Shown here piece after piece: positions 15,725 to 52,755 of a DNA stretch of 64,000 nucleotides. The stretch lies in sequence record KX130862; one strand, 5' to 3'. Below the pieces are notes generated by a model. The model did no database searches and had not been told where the DNA came from. It saw only the letters and a list, made by a program, of their open reading frames with translations. The translations under genes and the position numbers were made by a program. The stretch's first letter is position 1. Each line of letters begins with the position of its first letter. The DNA comes from Shigella phage SHFML-26.

Positions 15725-18700
15725 ATGGCCGAGATTAAAAGAAAGTTCAGAGCAGAAGATGGTCTGGACGCAGGTGGCGATAAAATAATCAACGTAGCTT
15801 TAGCTGATCGTACCGTAGGAACTGACGGTGTTAACGTTGATTACTTAATTCAAGAAAACACAGTTCAGCAATATGATCCAACTCGTGGATATTTAAAAGA
15901 TTTTGTAATCATTTATAATAATCGTTTTTGGGCAGCAACGGATAATATTCCAAAACCTGCTGGAAATTTTAATAGAATTCGTTGGAAAGCATTACGTACT
16001 GATGCTGTATATACAACCGTATCATCTGGACCATATCAATTAAAATCCGGAGAAGCAATTTCAGTAGATACATCAGTTGGCAATGACATTGAGTTTACTT
16101 TACCGCCTTCTCCGCTTGATGGAGAAACCGTAATAATTCAAGATATCGGTGGAAAACCTGGCATAAATCAGGTTAAAATAAATTCTTCAAATCAGAGTAT
16201 TGTCAATTTTAGAGGTGAACAGGTACGTTCAGTTTTAATGACTCATCCAAAGTCACAGATGGTATTCATTTTTAATAATCGTTTGTGGCAAATGTATATT
16301 GCTGATTATAGCAGAGAAGCTGCGATTGTTACTCCATCGACTGCATATCAAGCACAATCTAATGATTTTATCGTACGTAGATTTACTTCTGCCGCGCCGA
16401 TTAATGTTAAGCTTCCAAGATTTGCCAATCATGGAGATATCATTAATTTCGTTGATTTAGATAAATTAAATCCACTTTATCATACAATTGTTACGACATA
16501 TGATGAAACAACGTCAGTGCAAGAAGTTGGAACTCATTCCATTGAAGGCCGTACATCGATTGACGGTTTCTTGATGTTTGATGATAATGAGAAATTGTGG
16601 AGATTGTTTGACGGGGATAGTAAAGCACGTTTACGCATTATAACAACTAATTCTAATATTCGTCCAAATGAAGAAGTCATGGTATTTGGCGCGAATAATG
16701 GAACAACCCAGACAATTGAACTTCAGCTTCCGACTGATATTTCTGTTGGTGATACTGTCAAAATTTCCATGAATTACATGAGAAAAGGACAAACAGTTAA
16801 AATCAAAGCTGCAGGTGAAGATAAAATTGCTTCCTCAGTTCAATTGCTGCAATTCCCAAAACGTTCAGAATATCCGCCTGAAGCTGAATGGGTAACAGTT
16901 CAAGAATTAGTTTTTAACGGTGAAACTAATTATGTTCCAGTTTTACAACTTGCTTATATAGAAGATTCTGATGGAAAATGCTGGGTTGTACAGCAAAACG
17001 TTCCAACTGTAGAAAGAGTAGACTCTTTAAATGCTTCTACTAGAGCAAGATTAGGCGTAATTGCTTTAGCTACGCAAGCTCAAGCAAATGCTGATTTAGA
17101 AAATTCTCCACAAAAAGAATTAGCAATTACTCCAGAAACGTTAGCTAATCGTACTGCTACAGAAACTCGCAGAGGTATTGCAAGAATAGCAACTACTGCT
17201 CAAGTGAATCAGAACACCACATTCTCTTTTGCAGATGACCTTATCATCACTCCTAAAAAGCTGAATGAAAGAACTGCTACAGAAACTCGTAGAGGTGTCG
17301 CTGAAATTGCTACGCAGCAGGAAACTAATACAGGTACTGATGATACTACAATCATCACTCCTAAAAAGCTTCAAGCTCGCCAAGGTTCTGAATCATTATC
17401 TGGTATTGTAACTTATGTATCTACTGCAGGAGCTACTCCAGCTTCTAGCCGTGAATTAAATGGTACGAATGTTTATAATAAAAACACTAATAATTTAGTT
17501 GTTTCACCTAAAGCTTTGGATCAGTATAAAGCTACTCCAACGCAACAAGGCGCAGTAATTTTAGCAGTTGAAAGTGAAGTAATTGCTGGACAAAGCCAAG
17601 AAGGATGGGCAAATGCGGTTGTAACGCCAGAAACGTTACATAAAAAGACATCAACTGATGGAAGAATTGGTTTAATTGAAATTGCTACGCAAAGTGAAGT
17701 TAACACAGGAACTGACTATACTCGTGCAGTCACTCCTAAAACTTTAAATGACCGTAGAGCAACTGAAAGTTTAAGTGGTATAGCTGAAATTGCTACGCAA
17801 GTTGAATTCGACGCAGGCGTCGACGATACTCGCATCTCTACACCATTAAAAATTAAAACTAGATTTAATAGTACTGATCGTACTTCTGTTGTTGCTCTAT
17901 CTGGATTAGTTGAATCAGGAACTCTCTGGGACCATTATACCCTTAATATTCTTGAAGCAAATGAGACACAGCGTGGTACACTTCGTGTAGCTACACAAGT
18001 TGAAGCTGCTGCAGGAACATTAGATAATGTTTTAATAACTCCTAAAAAGCTTTTAGGTACTAAATCTACCGAATCGCAAGAAGGTGTTATTAAAGTTGCA
18101 ACTCAGTCTGAAACTGTGACTGGAACGTCAGCAAATACTGCTGTATCTCCAAAAAATTTAAAGTGGATTGTGCAGAGTGAACCAACTTGGGCAGCAACTA
18201 CTCTGATAAGAGGGTTTGTTAAAACTTCATCTGGTTCAATTACATTCGTTGGTAATGATACCGTTGGTTCAACGCAGTCATTAGAATCATATGAGAAAAA
18301 TGGTTATGCAGTATCACCATATGAATTAAACCGTGTATTAGCAAATTATTTGCCATTAAAAGCAAAAGCTGTAGATAGTAATTTATTAGATGGTCTAGAT
18401 TCGCTCCAGTTCATTCGTAGGGACATTGCACAAACAGTTAATGGTTCACTAACCTTAACCCAACAAACGAATCTGAGTGCCCCTCTTGTATCATCTAGTA
18501 CAGCTACGTTTGGTGGGTCAGTTTCAGCAAATAGTACATTAACTATTTCTAATACTGGAACGGCAACTCGATTGATTTTTGAGAAAGGACCTCAAACTGG
18601 AACAAACCCGGCTCAAACGATGACAGTCAGAGTGTGGGGAAATCAATTTAGTGGGGAATCAGACACAACACGTTCTACCGTATTTGAAGTTAGTGATGAA

Positions 18701-19594
18701 ACGTCTAGTCATTTTTATTCTCAGCGTAATAAAGCTGGAAATATAACATTTAATATCAACGGTACAGTAACACCGATAAATGTTAATGCTTCAGGAACAT
18801 TGAATGCAAATGGTGTAGCAACATTTGGTAATTCAGTCACTGCAACTGGTGAAATTATTTCTCGAAGCGCAAATGCTTTCCGTGCTATTAACGGAAATTA
18901 TGGTTTCATTGTTCGCAATGATGGGTCAGTAACGAATTTTATGCTTACTGCATCGGGTGATCAAACCGGCGGATTTAATGGATTGCGTCCTTTAGCTATT
19001 AATAATGCATCTGGCCAAGTAACGATTGGTGAAAGCTTAATCATTGCAAAAGGTGCTACTATAAGTTCAGGCGGTTTAACTGTTAACTCGAGAATTCGTT
19101 CTCAGGGTACTAAAACCTCTGATTTATATACCCGTGCGCCAACATCTGATACAGTAGGATTCTGGTCAATCGATATTAATGATTCAGCCACTTATAACCA
19201 GTTCCCGGGTTATTTTAAAATGGTTGAAAAAACTAATGAAGTGACTGGACTTCCATACTTAGAACGCGGTGAAGAAGTTAAATCTCCTGGTACATTGACT
19301 CAGTTTGGTAACACACTTGATTCGCTTTATCAAGATTGGATTACTTATCCAACGACCCCAGAAGCACGTACCACTCGCTGGACACGTACATGGCAGAAAA
19401 CCAAAAACTCTTGGTCAAGTTTTGTTCAGGTATTTGATGGAGGTAACCCTCCTCAACCTTCGGATATAGGAGCAATCCCATCTGATAATGGAATAATAGG
19501 TAATCTTACTATTCGTGATTTCTTACGAATTGGTAATGTTCGCATTATTCCTGACCCAGTGAATAAAACTGTTAAATTTGAATGGGTTGAATAA
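15725..19594 (+). CDS. 34: long tail fibre proximal subunit gp34
   Basis: 1289 aa MAEIKRKFRAEDGLDAGGDKIINVALADRTVG...; internal repeats of the ...TATETRRG(I/V)A(R/E)IAT... type. Confidence 0.95.
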   Translation: MAEIKRKFRAEDGLDAGGDKIINVALADRTVGTDGVNVDYLIQENTVQQYDPTRGYLKDFVIIYNNRFWAATDNIPKPAGNFNRIRWKALRTDAVYTTVSSGPYQLKSGEAISVDTSVGNDIEFTLPPSPLDGETVIIQDIGGKPGINQVKINSSNQSIVNFRGEQVRSVLMTHPKSQMVFIFNNRLWQMYIADYSREAAIVTPSTAYQAQSNDFIVRRFTSAAPINVKLPRFANHGDIINFVDLDKLNPLYHTIVTTYDETTSVQEVGTHSIEGRTSIDGFLMFDDNEKLWRLFDGDSKARLRIITTNSNIRPNEEVMVFGANNGTTQTIELQLPTDISVGDTVKISMNYMRKGQTVKIKAAGEDKIASSVQLLQFPKRSEYPPEAEWVTVQELVFNGETNYVPVLQLAYIEDSDGKCWVVQQNVPTVERVDSLNASTRARLGVIALATQAQANADLENSPQKELAITPETLANRTATETRRGIARIATTAQVNQNTTFSFADDLIITPKKLNERTATETRRGVAEIATQQETNTGTDDTTIITPKKLQARQGSESLSGIVTYVSTAGATPASSRELNGTNVYNKNTNNLVVSPKALDQYKATPTQQGAVILAVESEVIAGQSQEGWANAVVTPETLHKKTSTDGRIGLIEIATQSEVNTGTDYTRAVTPKTLNDRRATESLSGIAEIATQVEFDAGVDDTRISTPLKIKTRFNSTDRTSVVALSGLVESGTLWDHYTLNILEANETQRGTLRVATQVEAAAGTLDNVLITPKKLLGTKSTESQEGVIKVATQSETVTGTSANTAVSPKNLKWIVQSEPTWAATTLIRGFVKTSSGSITFVGNDTVGSTQSLESYEKNGYAVSPYELNRVLANYLPLKAKAVDSNLLDGLDSLQFIRRDIAQTVNGSLTLTQQTNLSAPLVSSSTATFGGSVSANSTLTISNTGTATRLIFEKGPQTGTNPAQTMTVRVWGNQFSGESDTTRSTVFEVSDETSSHFYSQRNKAGNITFNINGTVTPINVNASGTLNANGVATFGNSVTATGEIISRSANAFRAINGNYGFIVRNDGSVTNFMLTASGDQTGGFNGLRPLAINNASGQVTIGESLIIAKGATISSGGLTVNSRIRSQGTKTSDLYTRAPTSDTVGFWSIDINDSATYNQFPGYFKMVEKTNEVTGLPYLERGEEVKSPGTLTQFGNTLDSLYQDWITYPTTPEARTTRWTRTWQKTKNSWSSFVQVFDGGNPPQPSDIGAIPSDNGIIGNLTIRDFLRIGNVRIIPDPVNKTVKFEWVE

Positions 19595-45196: not shown

Positions 45197-45943
45197 TTAT
45201 CCTCGGATAAGTTTAAAAATTGAACAATTTAGCGGGTATCCTCTTTTCAGTTTAAGTTTATCAATAAAAGACAAATTTTGATACCGCTCTACACCTTGAA
45301 TAATTTTATCACACATATCATATTGCATTTCTGCTTCTGACAACTTTTTCACAGTTTTCCAATCCGAGCCTTTAAGAAGAACGTTCAATTTAACAACTTC
45401 AGCGCCTTCTGCTATACGAGAACCATCAATACGAGCTTTGAGTGCTACAATCGTTAGCTTAATGTCTGAGGTTTGTTTTGATTTAGAAAGCTGAGAAATG
45501 TGTTCAATTCGGTTTTCACGTTTTTTCTGTATAGCTTTAATTTGATTATAAGTCTTTTTGATTTTAGCCCATTTCTTTTCATCTAAATTTAGTTTATAAA
45601 CTTTTTTCGCAGATGAACGACCAATTCGCAAAGCAAATAAATCACGCTTTTCAATCAACTCTTCTAAAGTATAATCAGAACGAAATGTATTGTACTTTTT
45701 CTTTACTGCAATAACATTCCCTTTAATGTATCCAACGTTATTATCAAAACGTTCTAATGATAATTTCTCTCCTTCAATACGATTATCAAAAGGTTCTCCT
45801 GAGTAAGCACAAACTTTTTGATCTAAAATGTTCTTAATGTAATTGAAGTCTAAGTTAAAATCTTTAGAACGTCTTTTTGCAGATGCCTGAGTATGCTCTA
45901 GACGACGTTTAATTTTACGAATTTGATTATTAGACAGCTTCAT
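45197..45943 (-). CDS. hypothetical basic protein (248 aa), Srd-like by position
   Basis: Track ORF between dda and modA; Lys/Arg-rich. Confidence 0.45.
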   Translation of the reverse strand: MKLSNNQIRKIKRRLEHTQASAKRRSKDFNLDFNYIKNILDQKVCAYSGEPFDNRIEGEKLSLERFDNNVGYIKGNVIAVKKKYNTFRSDYTLEELIEKRDLFALRIGRSSAKKVYKLNLDEKKWAKIKKTYNQIKAIQKKRENRIEHISQLSKSKQTSDIKLTIVALKARIDGSRIAEGAEVVKLNVLLKGSDWKTVKKLSEAEMQYDMCDKIIQGVERYQNLSFIDKLKLKRGYPLNCSIFKLIRG

Positions 45944-46066
45944 ATTTTTCTCACATCTTACGGACGGTTAACTACTTATACTATAACATTTTTACTTTAA
46001 CTTGTAAACAACTTTATGTAAAAATGCTTTAAAACTTTCATGGTATAATGAATCTAAGTCCTTCCA

Positions 46067-46669
46067 TTATAGATTAAATCCTTCAAAATCAAGAGTATAG
46101 ATAGTGTATGTTGAACACTTTTTGTACTCATATCTATCTGCAATTCTAAATACACTTCCAGCTGGTATCATTACTTCTTGTTCATCTGAAACTAATTCCA
46201 TATTACGATAACGATGACTATCCGGAAACTTAAAGTTTGGATTGTATTCTTTACAACGTAAAGCTTTTATAGCATACTCCTGGAAATTAAACACCATAGG
46301 AGCTTTGAATTCAAAAATAACTTGTGTGTTGTATTCTAATCCAGAAGCAAAATGTAGAGCTATATTTTTATCATATGAAGCTGATACTACTTTATCAAAT
46401 GTAATAATATCAATTCCTTGATTTAACACCTGTTTAATCTCAACTGGAACACCTCTCCAAAGAGGTTTATCGTTTGGAACCAAACGAGATTTGACTATTT
46501 CATTTAACCAAGAATGATCGTCTGGTTTATTAGTAATACAATGAATTAAAAGTTCAATTTCAGATAAATTAAATCCTTCGGAAAGTAATTCTTCACGAAT
46601 AGAAGCACGCACCGATGCATCCATTGATTTGATTTTAAAATCTTTTAATTGCATTGCTGAATATTTCAT
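46067..46669 (-). CDS. modA: ADP-ribosyltransferase ModA
   Basis: 200 aa with R ... S-x-S ... E-Q-E arrangement (LWRGVP, SASYD, DEQEVMIP). Confidence 0.7.
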   Translation of the reverse strand: MKYSAMQLKDFKIKSMDASVRASIREELLSEGFNLSEIELLIHCITNKPDDHSWLNEIVKSRLVPNDKPLWRGVPVEIKQVLNQGIDIITFDKVVSASYDKNIALHFASGLEYNTQVIFEFKAPMVFNFQEYAIKALRCKEYNPNFKFPDSHRYRNMELVSDEQEVMIPAGSVFRIADRYEYKKCSTYTIYTLDFEGFNL

Positions 46670-49498: not shown

Positions 49499-49735
49499 TT
49501 AACCACCTATTTCTGTAGGCGTAAACATTGCAGCATTCTTAGTTTTCCAAGTTGCTGCATCGGAAACTACATCAGAATAAGCTGCTTTTTCTGAAGGAAA
49601 GATTTGATAATGAGAATCTGCAATACGGTGTTCATTTGAATATACATCAAATGCTACAGAAACTTCCATACCTTTAACTTCTTTGCCTTCACCCGCTGGA
49701 TGAGTAAAGGTCTTGATGTTAACGAAACCACCCAT
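49499..49735 (-). CDS. soc: small outer capsid protein Soc
   Basis: 78 aa with the pattern FVNIKTF...KE.SVAF..YS..H.I...HYQ.FPSEKAAYS shared with T4 Soc. Confidence 0.8.
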   Translation of the reverse strand: MGGFVNIKTFTHPAGEGKEVKGMEVSVAFDVYSNEHRIADSHYQIFPSEKAAYSDVVSDAATWKTKNAAMFTPTEIGG

Positions 49736-49774
49736 AATAAACTCCTTTATTGTTTAATTACAGGTGTATTTATA

Positions 49775-49948
49775 TCAGTCTTCAATGAAAACTTGTGCCA
49801 GGAATTCGTGTTCATCTTGAATTTGTTTATATAAAGCCATTACAGCATTTATATTAGAGCTATCTACTTTAAGTTGATAGGCATACCACTCGTATAAATT
49901 AATTAAAGCTTTTTGTCGTCTAATAAATTCTTCTTTGGATATTTTCAT
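49775..49948 (-). CDS. small hypothetical protein (57 aa)
   Basis: Hand-translated; ATG overlaps the stop of 49945..50145 (ATGA). Confidence 0.35.
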   Translation of the reverse strand: MKISKEEFIRRQKALINLYEWYAYQLKVDSSNINAVMALYKQIQDEHEFLAQVFIED

Positions 49949-50145
49949 TTTGAATGCTCTATAATTAATTTTAAGGCTTCTTTACTGACAAAAATTTCAT
50001 CAAGACCTTCTTCTACACCCCAATCAACTACACGAAGCTGATTAGATAAGAGCTCGTATGTGAGCTCCTTGTCATAATTTTTAAATAGCTGGTCAATACG
50101 TTTCTTGTGGGCTTTCTTAAGCTGGCGTTTATTTAAACGAGCCAT
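49945..50145 (-). CDS. hypothetical protein (66 aa)
   Basis: Track ORF immediately downstream of gene 56. Confidence 0.45.
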   Translation of the reverse strand: MARLNKRQLKKAHKKRIDQLFKNYDKELTYELLSNQLRVVDWGVEEGLDEIFVSKEALKLIIEHSK

Positions 50146-50663
50146 TAATAACCTCGGTCTTGACGAGCGAAGTTTTCAGCATTTTTCAGATAATAAAGTT
50201 TAAAGATTTCTTCAGCCGTAAGACCGAGGCCTTGGAACATGTTCAGAACGAAATGAAGAATATCAATCATTTCGAATTTAATTTCCAACTGGTCTTGTGG
50301 AGACAAATCAGTAATCAGAGTTTCACGTCGTTCACCATGTTGAGCTTTCCAAGGCTTCCATACAGCAGATGCATCTTTTTCACCATTGCTCATACCACCA
50401 AGAGAAGTCAATAGTTCGCGGAATTCATCATCAATATAATCTTTCTGATTACGCAGCCAATCAACAACTTCACCCGCAGTAGCCAAATCATCAGGATGAC
50501 GGTTATATTCAGGTTTATCTTTAGCTAAACGAACCTGCAGAGATTTCTGCATATCAAGCATAACTTGCAACGGGTCTTTTTCATCACCGAGAATATCCCA
50601 GTATTCATTTTGAGCTTTATCAGCGCCTTCAATCAGTTGTGAACATTCATTAAAGTATGCCAT
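50145..50663 (-). CDS. 56: dCTP pyrophosphatase (dCTPase-dUTPase) gp56
   Basis: MAYFNECSQLIEGADKAQNEYWDILGDEKDPLQVMLD...EIFKLYYLKNAENFARQDRGY; track ORF trimmed to Met with AAGGAAA RBS. Confidence 0.85.
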   Translation of the reverse strand: MAYFNECSQLIEGADKAQNEYWDILGDEKDPLQVMLDMQKSLQVRLAKDKPEYNRHPDDLATAGEVVDWLRNQKDYIDDEFRELLTSLGGMSNGEKDASAVWKPWKAQHGERRETLITDLSPQDQLEIKFEMIDILHFVLNMFQGLGLTAEEIFKLYYLKNAENFARQDRGY

Positions 50664-50734
50664 TATTTTTCCTTTCAATTCATGGGTTAGTAGATTAATT
50701 ATACAATAAATATATAAAGCAATAAGGAGGATAT

Positions 50735-50935
50735 ATGGTACAAAAATTAATGGCACTTGTTAATGCCATAAAAGGTAATAAAAAACGTATAGCTTTTACT
50801 ATTTCTGCTATGGTAGGAATTTTACTCTGGAATTTTGTTTTATCACCAATTGCTATTGCTCATGGTGTTAATATTCCAGTAATTACTCTTGATACATTCG
50901 TAGATTTAGCATTTGCTTTAGTTGGGTTAATTTAA
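50735..50935 (+). CDS. small hydrophobic protein (66 aa) on the opposite strand
   Basis: Strong SD AAGGAGG 6 nt upstream of ATG; two predicted TM segments; sits in the 56-61 intergenic gap. Confidence 0.5.
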   Translation: MVQKLMALVNAIKGNKKRIAFTISAMVGILLWNFVLSPIAIAHGVNIPVITLDTFVDLAFALVGLI

Positions 50936-51960
50936 ATCTTAGCGTATTTAGATAGCCGCATTTTAGCCATCAACCCTTGGGCAATATTATTTTTCATATA
51001 TTCCATAATTTGTTTAGGGGTTGCACCTTCCTTTCTAATCATATCATTAACATCTTTTGATTTCCAGGGAGATTTATCCCAAAACATAACCCTTTCTCCT
51101 GCATCAACTAATTTAGTCATTCGTTTAATAGTGTCAGGGTGACGAGGTTCATTATCTAAAACCCATACACGTCTATCTTTAAATGGAACAATTTCTAGGT
51201 CTAATTGACCACCCGTAATAGCTATACCATTTTCAATAAAAAGTGAATCTATAGGTCCTTCTAGAACATATACATCACCATCTTTGACTCGTTCGACTCC
51301 ATAAATTTTTGTTGCCTCAGGATAAGCTTTGATGGTGATATATTTTTGAGGAGCATCTTTCTTTAATGCACGTCCTTGAAAAGACTCAGCTTTTCCGTTA
51401 GCATTATAAATTGGAATAACAAGACGAGGCTCAGGTATTTCCTTTTTATATGTTCCTGGCGCTATACTATTAACTAATTTAGGCCATTCGGTTGTAAACC
51501 AAAGATATTTCCATTTATCCTTTGGAATACAACGAGCTTTTACATATTTTATAATTGGATGGTCTTCCGCCAGTTTATCTAATCTAATGCATGACGGAAG
51601 AGATTTAATTATTTTCTTCTCAGGTTGTTTAGGAAGTTCTTTAGGTTTTTCTACTGGACGACTTTTACCTTTTTCCTTTCTTATTTCAAAGATATACTCA
51701 CGATATAAATCAGGTTCAAACTCCTTTAAATATATTCCGATTGGTGCATGATAGTTACAGTTATAACAATGAATATTTCCTTCATTATTATCGCCATAAT
51801 ACCATCCACGGGCTTTATTTTGGTCGGTTTTTGAATCTCCACAAACAGGACATCTAAACCGTAATTTAAAAGTTGAACTATTATTTACTTGTGTGAATTT
51901 AGGTAAATGAGCTAATGCACGGTATGCAAACTCATTATCAATCCAAGGTATTGATGACAT
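50932..51960 (-). CDS. 61: DNA primase gp61
   Basis: 342 aa with N-terminal zinc-ribbon CPVCGDS...CYNCNYH and TOPRIM region. Confidence 0.9.
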   Translation of the reverse strand: MSSIPWIDNEFAYRALAHLPKFTQVNNSSTFKLRFRCPVCGDSKTDQNKARGWYYGDNNEGNIHCYNCNYHAPIGIYLKEFEPDLYREYIFEIRKEKGKSRPVEKPKELPKQPEKKIIKSLPSCIRLDKLAEDHPIIKYVKARCIPKDKWKYLWFTTEWPKLVNSIAPGTYKKEIPEPRLVIPIYNANGKAESFQGRALKKDAPQKYITIKAYPEATKIYGVERVKDGDVYVLEGPIDSLFIENGIAITGGQLDLEIVPFKDRRVWVLDNEPRHPDTIKRMTKLVDAGERVMFWDKSPWKSKDVNDMIRKEGATPKQIMEYMKNNIAQGLMAKMRLSKYAKI

Positions 51961-51962
51961 TT

Positions 51963-52127
51963 TTACTCTTCTTTTTCTTTAGATTCCTCTTTTTTCTTTT
52001 TAGGAATCTGTTCAGGACCTTTATTTACTACAGCGCCTGACGTTGTTCCAGTGGAGATATTTTCAGGATTACCACCTGAATCTCCAGCTACCATATCTTC
52101 TTTAATAAATTCTTTATATGTTTTCAT
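51963..52127 (-). CDS. small hypothetical protein (about 54 aa, Lys/Glu-rich tail)
   Basis: Hand-translated ORF directly upstream of gene 61. Confidence 0.4.
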   Translation of the reverse strand: MKTYKEFIKEDMVAGDSGGNPENISTGTTSGAVVNKGPEQIPKKKKEESKEKEE

Positions 52128-52128
52128 A

Positions 52129-52755
52129 TTAACCTCTATTCATAAAAGCATTAAAAATTTGGTCATCAATAGAAACATCTACTTTAGACTGTTTTTCTGA
52201 TGGTAATTCATATCCACATATTACAATTTTGTGATCAATATCAAAATACACAGAAGCAATATGATTAATGATGTTTTCAGTAAAGTCTAAATCAACATCA
52301 ATATCTTTTTGACCACAGCCCAAAGGATAAATAATGCGAGTAATTCGATTATCTTTAACAAAGATTCCACCGACATACTCTGTGCTGTGTTTAAAGTCTA
52401 CACGCCGACGAAATGAAAAATATTCAGGCTCTTTATGAGCTCTGCTCATAGGACACAACGAGTAACTAGAATAAGAGATGTCAAATCCTACGCCTTCGAT
52501 ATGAGCCAAAGTGTCATGATTAAACCAATTATAATCGTACGCCAAATCCATTAGATTATAATATGTAAAAGGCACCGGATTAACATCATTAGTCACAAGC
52601 ATATAATTAGCAACTGCTATAATTTCATTGTTTTTAACGAATACAAACCGTGATTGATGTGAATGACCCGGACCCGCGTTTTCACGATTAATGATATAAC
52701 ACTGGGCACCTTTATATTTGTATGTATCTTTACACTTGTGCATTTGATAGAGCAT
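52129..52755 (-). CDS. hypothetical protein (208 aa), 61.2-like by position
   Basis: Track ORF; position and length fit T4 gene 61.2. Confidence 0.5.
   Translation of the reverse strand: MLYQMHKCKDTYKYKGAQCYIINRENAGPGHSHQSRFVFVKNNEIIAVANYMLVTNDVNPVPFTYYNLMDLAYDYNWFNHDTLAHIEGVGFDISYSSYSLCPMSRAHKEPEYFSFRRRVDFKHSTEYVGGIFVKDNRITRIIYPLGCGQKDIDVDLDFTENIINHIASVYFDIDHKIVICGYELPSEKQSKVDVSIDDQIFNAFMNRG

Follow-up and report, generated by a model that had tools for sequence, protein, structure and literature searches.

A conserved clockwise gene convergent with the primase gene of Shigella phage SHFML-26 and T4 probably encodes a late inner-membrane protein

Phage T4 encodes several small envelope proteins, among them Imm, Sp, Ac, RI, RIII and the holin T, and its lysis system comprises T as the defined holin together with the antiholins RI and RIII. 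Holins typically end in a charged hydrophilic tail, and the hydrophobic core of cleaved signal peptides is usually shorter than 19–24 residues. The T4 late promoter box is placed roughly one turn of the helix ahead of the start site and needs no -35 element. It is an 8-bp box, TATAAATA, and A at position -13, found at 9 of the 50 listed T4 late-promoter sites, is its commonest documented variant, next to other single deviations and one TA-to-AT variant (PMC2988020). Related phages show little conservation at -13 (PMC1524935), and the in vivo relative strength of variant late promoters is given as unknown (PMC2988020). T4 early and middle transcripts all run counterclockwise, which leaves only the late period of infection for the expression of a clockwise gene (PMC2988020).

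The small ORF described here is not a discovery, since its family already appears in annotations as a hypothetical protein. The ORF matched phrog_2024 over the full length of the profile (HMM E-value 5.4e-31, residues 2–66 against profile positions 1–65 of 65), and proteins 100% identical to it are present in GenBank as ‘hypothetical protein’ (e.g., RB32ORF030w). The members of phrog_2024 include RB32ORF030w, VR7ORF033w, S16 gp16.1, hypothetical proteins of ime09 and SH-2, and others; the small ORF does not differ from them, being a member in the same position, convergent with the primase gene 61. Literature searches found no publication on phrog_2024 or its ORF names, and no relevant T4 Ribo-seq or small-protein study.

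The DNA analyzed (hereafter the window) was a 64-kb stretch of Shigella phage SHFML-26, a T4-like phage of the genus Tequatrovirus. The 1.9 kb spanning the small ORF matched 733 phage records, with 99% identity to phages LF73P3 and PBM-1. The original prediction had described, between genes 56 and 61, about 270 nt without an ORF on the minus strand and, on the plus strand, a hydrophobic 66-aa ORF with a strong Shine-Dalgarno (SD) sequence and a late-promoter-like box upstream. All of these elements were recovered (Table 1), with a measured gap of 268 nt and a translation that matched the predicted one exactly. A 203-aa minus-strand ORF given by a mechanical ORF list corresponded to gene 56 stretched to an upstream GTG. 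The small ORF and gene 61 converge, with a 4-nt overlap of their stop codons. In the close annotated relative vB_SsoM_113, the small ORF is the sole opposite-strand gene in 32 kb, from gene 44 to ndd, which agrees with the claim that it is the only plus-strand gene inside a long minus-strand block.

Table 1. Coordinates of the small ORF, its regulatory elements and neighboring features in the 64-kb window.
Feature	Position	Strand	Remarks
Small ORF	50735..50935	+	MVQKLMALVNAIKGNKKRIAFTISAMVGILLWNFVLSPIAIAHGVNIPVITLDTFVDLAFALVGLI; ATG start, 66 aa + stop
Shine-Dalgarno AAGGAGG	50724..50730	+	4 nt from ATG of small ORF
Late-promoter-like box AATAAATA	50705..50712	+	A(-13) variant of T4 gp55 box TATAAATA
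Consensus MotA-type middle promoter	50698..50721	-	TGCTTTA, 11 nt, TATAAT; points at gene 56
Terminator-like hairpin	50740..50769	-	8-bp stem 50769..50750, then UAAUUUUUGU (U-run)
Gene 56–61 gap without minus-strand gene	50664-50931		268 nt
Gene 56 (dCTPase), flanking	50145..50663	-	true start is ATG at 50663 (MAYFNEC...)
Gene 61 (DNA primase), flanking	50932..51960	-	convergent with small ORF
soc	49499-49735	-	
Late box of soc	49767-49774	-	perfect TATAAATA
Two small ORFs between soc and gene 56	49775-50145	-	57 and 66 aa; second corresponds to soc.2 of relatives
srd	45197-45943	-	
Clockwise middle promoter	46025-46049	+	perfect MotA-box + TGn + TATAAT consensus; antisense into modA
modA	46067-46669	-	

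In the T4 record (NC_000866), gene 56 lies at 16270-16785, dam at 16846-17625 and gene 61 at 17935-18963. The statement that T4 carries dam near this position was therefore accurate, and the T4 map between genes 56 and 61, which might have been empty, holds dam and an unannotated small ORF. The latter lies at 17738-17938 (locus L001, 4239-4439) within the 309 bp left blank between dam and gene 61; its protein is 94% identical to that of the window, and it is preceded by GATAAATA and AAGGAGG. The exact T4 protein was absent from NCBI and UniProt and was present only in raw-read assemblies. Family members were also unannotated in JS10 (NC_012741, 15341-15541; locus L012, 1801-2001) and PEi20 (AP014714; locus L024, 1917-2102, minus strand). 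T4 is the reference phage of its group, yet its record leaves this conserved gene unannotated, and annotation of the ORF is warranted in the records of T4, JS10, PEi20 and the like. A counterpart of T4 Dam was not found in the 64-kb window (tblastn, best E-value 0.8), which bears out the predicted absence of a methyltransferase-like ORF. The small ORF has no similarity to Dam and was rejected as a dam remnant.

The ORF was detected by tblastn in 691 phage records and was intact, with at least 80% coverage, in 685 of them. Homologues of 61–69 aa were found in all ten T-even-like genera examined, in convergent position and overlapping the 3′ end of the primase gene 61; within >30 kb of early genes, the ORF alone is clockwise. 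The genera include Tequatrovirus, Mosigvirus (ST0), Marfavirus (PhiKpNIH-6), Mosugukvirus (PM2), Karamvirus (CkP1), Gelderlandvirus (S16), Dhakavirus (JS10), Kanagawavirus (Q7622, Kosakonia 305, and PEi20) and Gaprivervirus (VR25, with two tandem paralogues). Nine homologues from other genera also matched phrog_2024, with E-values of 1.7e-15 to 2.8e-28. In more distant T4-like phages, sampled from four genera (Krischvirus, Biquartavirus, Lazarusvirus and that of Klebsiella phage RCIP0002, whose record gives no genus), the ORF was absent beside the primase gene, and co-oriented genes directly follow the latter. Homologous loci were taken from an annotated phage collection, and a related-locus search of IMG/VR gave seven loci. 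With a HMMER profile, 1.84 billion representatives yielded six matches, all close relatives; the full-family profile, searched against 5.8 billion proteins, yielded 79 clusters, all unnamed and all on T-even-like contigs.

Two sequence subfamilies could be distinguished, and these are related to each other (hhalign probability 96%, E-value 1.7e-9). Residues W32, N33, P38, G44 and P48 were invariant in 15 diverse members. Within subfamilies, dN/dS was 0.05–0.44, and amino-acid identity was equal to or higher than nucleotide identity in several pairs (e.g., 71% against 62% for VR25b and KpNIH-6). Variable sites at codon positions 1, 2 and 3 numbered 7, 2 and 11 in Tequatrovirus and 6, 0 and 13 in Mosigvirus. 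A GGAGG, GGAG or GGTGG motif preceded the ATG in 12 out of 12 lineages. The small ORF evolves under purifying selection as a protein, and this selection together with the conservation excludes a chance ORF. Because intactness, family membership, distribution and selection agree, the plus-strand 66-codon ORF is a real conserved gene. The comparison of the 56–61 interval with T4 and its relatives, which had been proposed along with the original prediction, thus removes the objection that the ORF might lack conservation.

Both subfamilies are present in tandem in VR25 (locus L004, 2495-2692 and 2701-2901, plus strand), where the second gene has no late box of its own. JS10 carries subfamily b alone, behind a leader (ATAAATATTAATTTAACAGGAGGATA) that is almost identical to the T4 leader ahead of subfamily a. 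The tandem pair of VR25 and the likeness of the JS10 and T4 leaders suggest that there may have been an ancestral two-gene operon, followed by reciprocal loss.

Of 12 divergent lineages, 10 had an ATAAATA that ended 13–22 nt ahead of the ATG, the surrounding DNA being unalignable; in the other two (CkP1 and S16), ATTAAATA stands in its place. The preceding base, at -13, was T, A, G or C, with T in only 3 of the 12 lineages. The box of the window, AATAAATA, matches the T4 late box at seven of eight positions, and the 64 kb hold only 16 copies of ATAAATA, both strands counted, with a background of 1.25e-4 per position. The transcript would start at about 50718-50720, downstream of the box. Late, gp55-dependent transcription of the small ORF is a well-supported prediction, because the box is conserved, the A(-13) variant is documented and the clockwise strand is late-only. 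A T4 dRNA-seq preprint reports 150 phage TSSs, of which 22 are antisense.

The nearest gp55-dependent late gene of T4 is soc, which lies within this early region too. It resembles the small ORF in having a TATAAATA-type box shortly upstream of a strong SD, and both would form islands of late expression among early and middle genes. The two genes differ in that soc runs counterclockwise and its product decorates the capsid, whereas the small ORF is clockwise, has an A(-13) box and encodes a predicted membrane protein.

Over the whole window, AATAAATA was depleted, with 6 occurrences against 14.5 ± 3.5 expected from dinucleotide-preserving shuffles (0 of 100 shuffles had fewer than 6), and TATAAATA was near expectation (8 against 9.6). 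The scarcity of AATAAATA is consistent with selection against stray late-promoter-like sequences.

The hydrophobic character claimed for the 66-aa protein was evident from a GRAVY of 1.25 and a 19-residue Kyte–Doolittle peak of 2.01 at residues 23–41, above the value of 1.6 taken as the threshold for a hydrophobic segment of 19 or more residues. The same peak was 1.76–2.43 in all ten family members scored. A positive-inside bias was found, with a net charge of +5 in residues 1–18 and -2 in the C-terminal part, and the N-terminus was net positive in nine of the ten members scored (CkP1 had 0). AlphaFold2 predicted three helices, with a pLDDT of 72.6 from 6 sequences and 81.0 from 25 sequences: a basic amphipathic helix (residues 2–12), a hydrophobic helix of 27 residues (16–42) and, after a conserved loop (43–51), an amphipathic helix (52–62). 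The invariant residues fall within the loop and the last part of the long helix. The summed Hessa dG of the best 19-mer was about 0 to +3.6 kcal/mol, which makes insertion plausible, though without a strong prediction for subfamily b. Based on hydropathy scales, the positive-inside rule and AlphaFold2, the product is most likely an inner-membrane protein with its N-terminus in the cytoplasm.

Taken together, it is likely that T-even-like phages have here a genuine gene whose product, an inner-membrane protein of 66 residues, is made late in infection. At that stage, RNA polymerase with gp55, gp33 and the gp45 clamp would recognize the AATAAATA box, transcription would begin about 7 nt past the box to give a leader of about 15 nt, and the perfect SD would drive translation from the ATG at 50735. 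The basic N-terminal helix would stay in the cytoplasm and residues ∼19–42 would cross the inner membrane, with the invariant W-N-x4-P-x-A-x3-G-x3-P segment forming the helix end and a turn on the periplasmic side. The C-terminal helix, which is short, acidic and amphipathic, would then lie on the outer leaflet or dip back into the membrane. From these features we infer the late timing, the topology and an action at the cell envelope late in infection, for which lysis timing or lysis inhibition, exclusion of superinfecting phages and membrane integrity are possible roles.

A further reading, doubtful as a whole, would make the ORF an overlooked T4 gene and a hallmark of T-even-like phages, encoding a late membrane micro-protein with a dedicated envelope role. 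Its candidate roles would be the tuning of lysis or lysis inhibition, the sealing of the membrane late in infection, or the countering of membrane-acting host defence. Under the same reading, signal peptidase might yield a 24-residue periplasmic peptide, and the overlap with the primase gene could couple expression to an antisense shut-off of primase mRNA. The present evidence opens no new kind of biology. The gene is a well-defined and cheap target, the role of which is easy to test, and a function found for it could apply to its whole family, which comprises at least 79 protein clusters.

The predicted late inner-membrane protein was compared with known envelope proteins and protein families. 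Like Imm, Sp, Ac, RI, RIII and T, the product of the small ORF is small, hydrophobic or membrane-targeted (as predicted here) and non-structural, and imm and sp lie within a few kb of the small ORF on the map. Imm and Sp differ in being encoded by early-strand genes, whereas the small ORF is on the late-only strand; T and RI have a periplasmic domain, which the small ORF product lacks. Scanned against Pfam and NCBIfam, ten family members produced sub-threshold noise only (YwcE, P13 porin, SspI). A PDB sequence-profile search gave only E-values >1, and Foldseek returned family members only from BFVD and nothing from PDB. No sequence or fold similarity between the small ORF product and named protein families or solved structures was found.

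The small, late and membrane-embedded character predicted for the product would also suit a lysis protein, that is, a holin, an antiholin or another modulator of lysis timing or lysis inhibition, and the tandem paralogues of VR25 might correspond to a partner pair. This alternative is unlikely. The family has no Pfam or NCBIfam match, and the holin models of both collections gave none even at E-values up to 10. The C-terminus (...DLAFALVGLI) has no basic residues and is hydrophobic and acidic, with a mean Kyte–Doolittle value of 2.07 over the last 18 residues, instead of forming a charged hydrophilic tail. The neighboring genes encode primase and dCTPase in every lineage and do not form a lysis cassette with an endolysin or spanin gene, and T4 already has the holin T and the antiholins RI and RIII. 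One family member does carry the name ‘Holin’, but this is a single automatic UniRef entry among hundreds of ‘hypothetical protein’, as arbitrary as the ‘DNA packaging ATPase’ of other members. Both names were rejected, the second being a stray and unsupported label on 66-aa members.

The end of the long helix bears on another alternative, in which the product would be a precursor. Its first 42 residues would be a long signal sequence, cut by signal peptidase I after P-x-A-x-(A/S/T), and a hydrophobic C-terminal peptide of about 24 residues would pass into the periplasm or the outer leaflet. The motif was found at residues 38–42 in six of the seven members checked; P38 and A40 are (nearly) invariant and most members have A, S or T at position 42, which gives a pattern of Pro at -5, Ala at -3 and a small residue at -1 at the end of a hydrophobic helix that follows a basic n-region. 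The h-region, however, is unusually long: with about 19–24 residues, its hydrophobic core exceeds that of typical cleaved signal peptides and suits an uncleaved anchor. Moreover, Leu occupies -3 in Mosigvirus, and the AlphaFold2 helix runs on through the motif. Cleavage has, on balance, only a small chance of being correct.

Besides the small ORF, the gap contains two minus-strand elements (Table 1). The exact middle-promoter consensus (PMC2988021) had three matches in the window against 0.09 expected; the element of gene 56 is also present in relatives, and the annotators of fPS-2 predicted one at the same spot. The late box sits in the spacer of this middle promoter on the opposite strand, giving a divergent, interleaved pair of promoters. 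In VR25, by contrast, the late box is placed just beyond the MotA box, and the late and middle promoter modules are therefore independent. The hairpin lies within codons 2–12 of the small ORF and had a folding z-score of only -1.5; the fPS-2 annotation marks a terminator at this site, and the hairpin would terminate gene 61 transcripts. Rfam gave no RNA family in 50500-51100. A consensus scan of 50100-52200, which covers the ORF and gene 61, gave no plus-strand intrinsic terminator, so that a late transcript may run antisense into gene 61.

Such an antisense RNA could itself be the main product of the locus, silencing primase mRNA late in infection and leaving the peptide a secondary role. The convergent layout with overlapping stops in every lineage and the result of the terminator scan would be in keeping with this, as would the fact that several T4 sites have both strands transcribed at different times (PMC2988020). 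It is nevertheless improbable as the main function, since it leaves unexplained the selection on the amino-acid sequence, the conserved strong SD and the tandem paralogue pair of VR25; a peptide and an antisense role are not mutually exclusive. That the gap serves only to regulate the minus strand (a terminator for gene 61 and a middle, possibly oriA-type primer, promoter for gene 56), with a fortuitous ORF, is extremely unlikely, because the promoter and the hairpin, although both marked by the fPS-2 annotators and accompanied in the T4 record by oriA at the gene 56 promoter region, fill only about 50 of the 268 nt, the other 200 nt are open in 685 records, at a dN/dS far below 1 and with amino-acid identities that reach or exceed those of the DNA, the SD and ATG are retained, five residues are invariant across ten genera, and the hairpin was not evident on reading the Mosigvirus sequence, though the ORF is conserved there. 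The middle promoter and the hairpin account for part of the gap, not for the conserved 200-nt frame of the membrane-protein gene.

The alignment between T4 and the window ends immediately 5′ of the SD. The slot between the small ORF and gene 56 is empty in the window, and it holds dam in T4, dam and a further ORF in the Tequatrovirus-like IMG/VR contig L009 (IMGVR_UViG_2974787500_000001), a homing endonuclease gene in fPS-2 and Kosakonia phage 305, and other ORFs elsewhere; it is a mosaic hot spot. On the other side of gene 56, T4 has the homing endonuclease gene segF where the window has the 57- and 66-aa ORFs. Considering this swap together with the missing dam, the neighborhood of gene 56 is mosaic on both sides. 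The further ORF of L009 (841-1401, minus strand) encodes 186 aa and lies between dam and the small ORF. It showed a weak, sub-threshold similarity to the GATC-cutting restriction endonuclease DpnII (PF04556; E-value 0.0045, 16.8 bits against a cutoff of 23), and dam and this ORF could represent a methylase–nuclease pair in a T-even phage.

Elsewhere in the window, a perfect consensus middle promoter was found on the clockwise strand between srd and modA, reading antisense into modA (Table 1). This orientation was unexpected, as descriptions of T4 have every middle transcript running counterclockwise; the element is conserved in vB_SsoM_113 (locus L025, 17938-17962).
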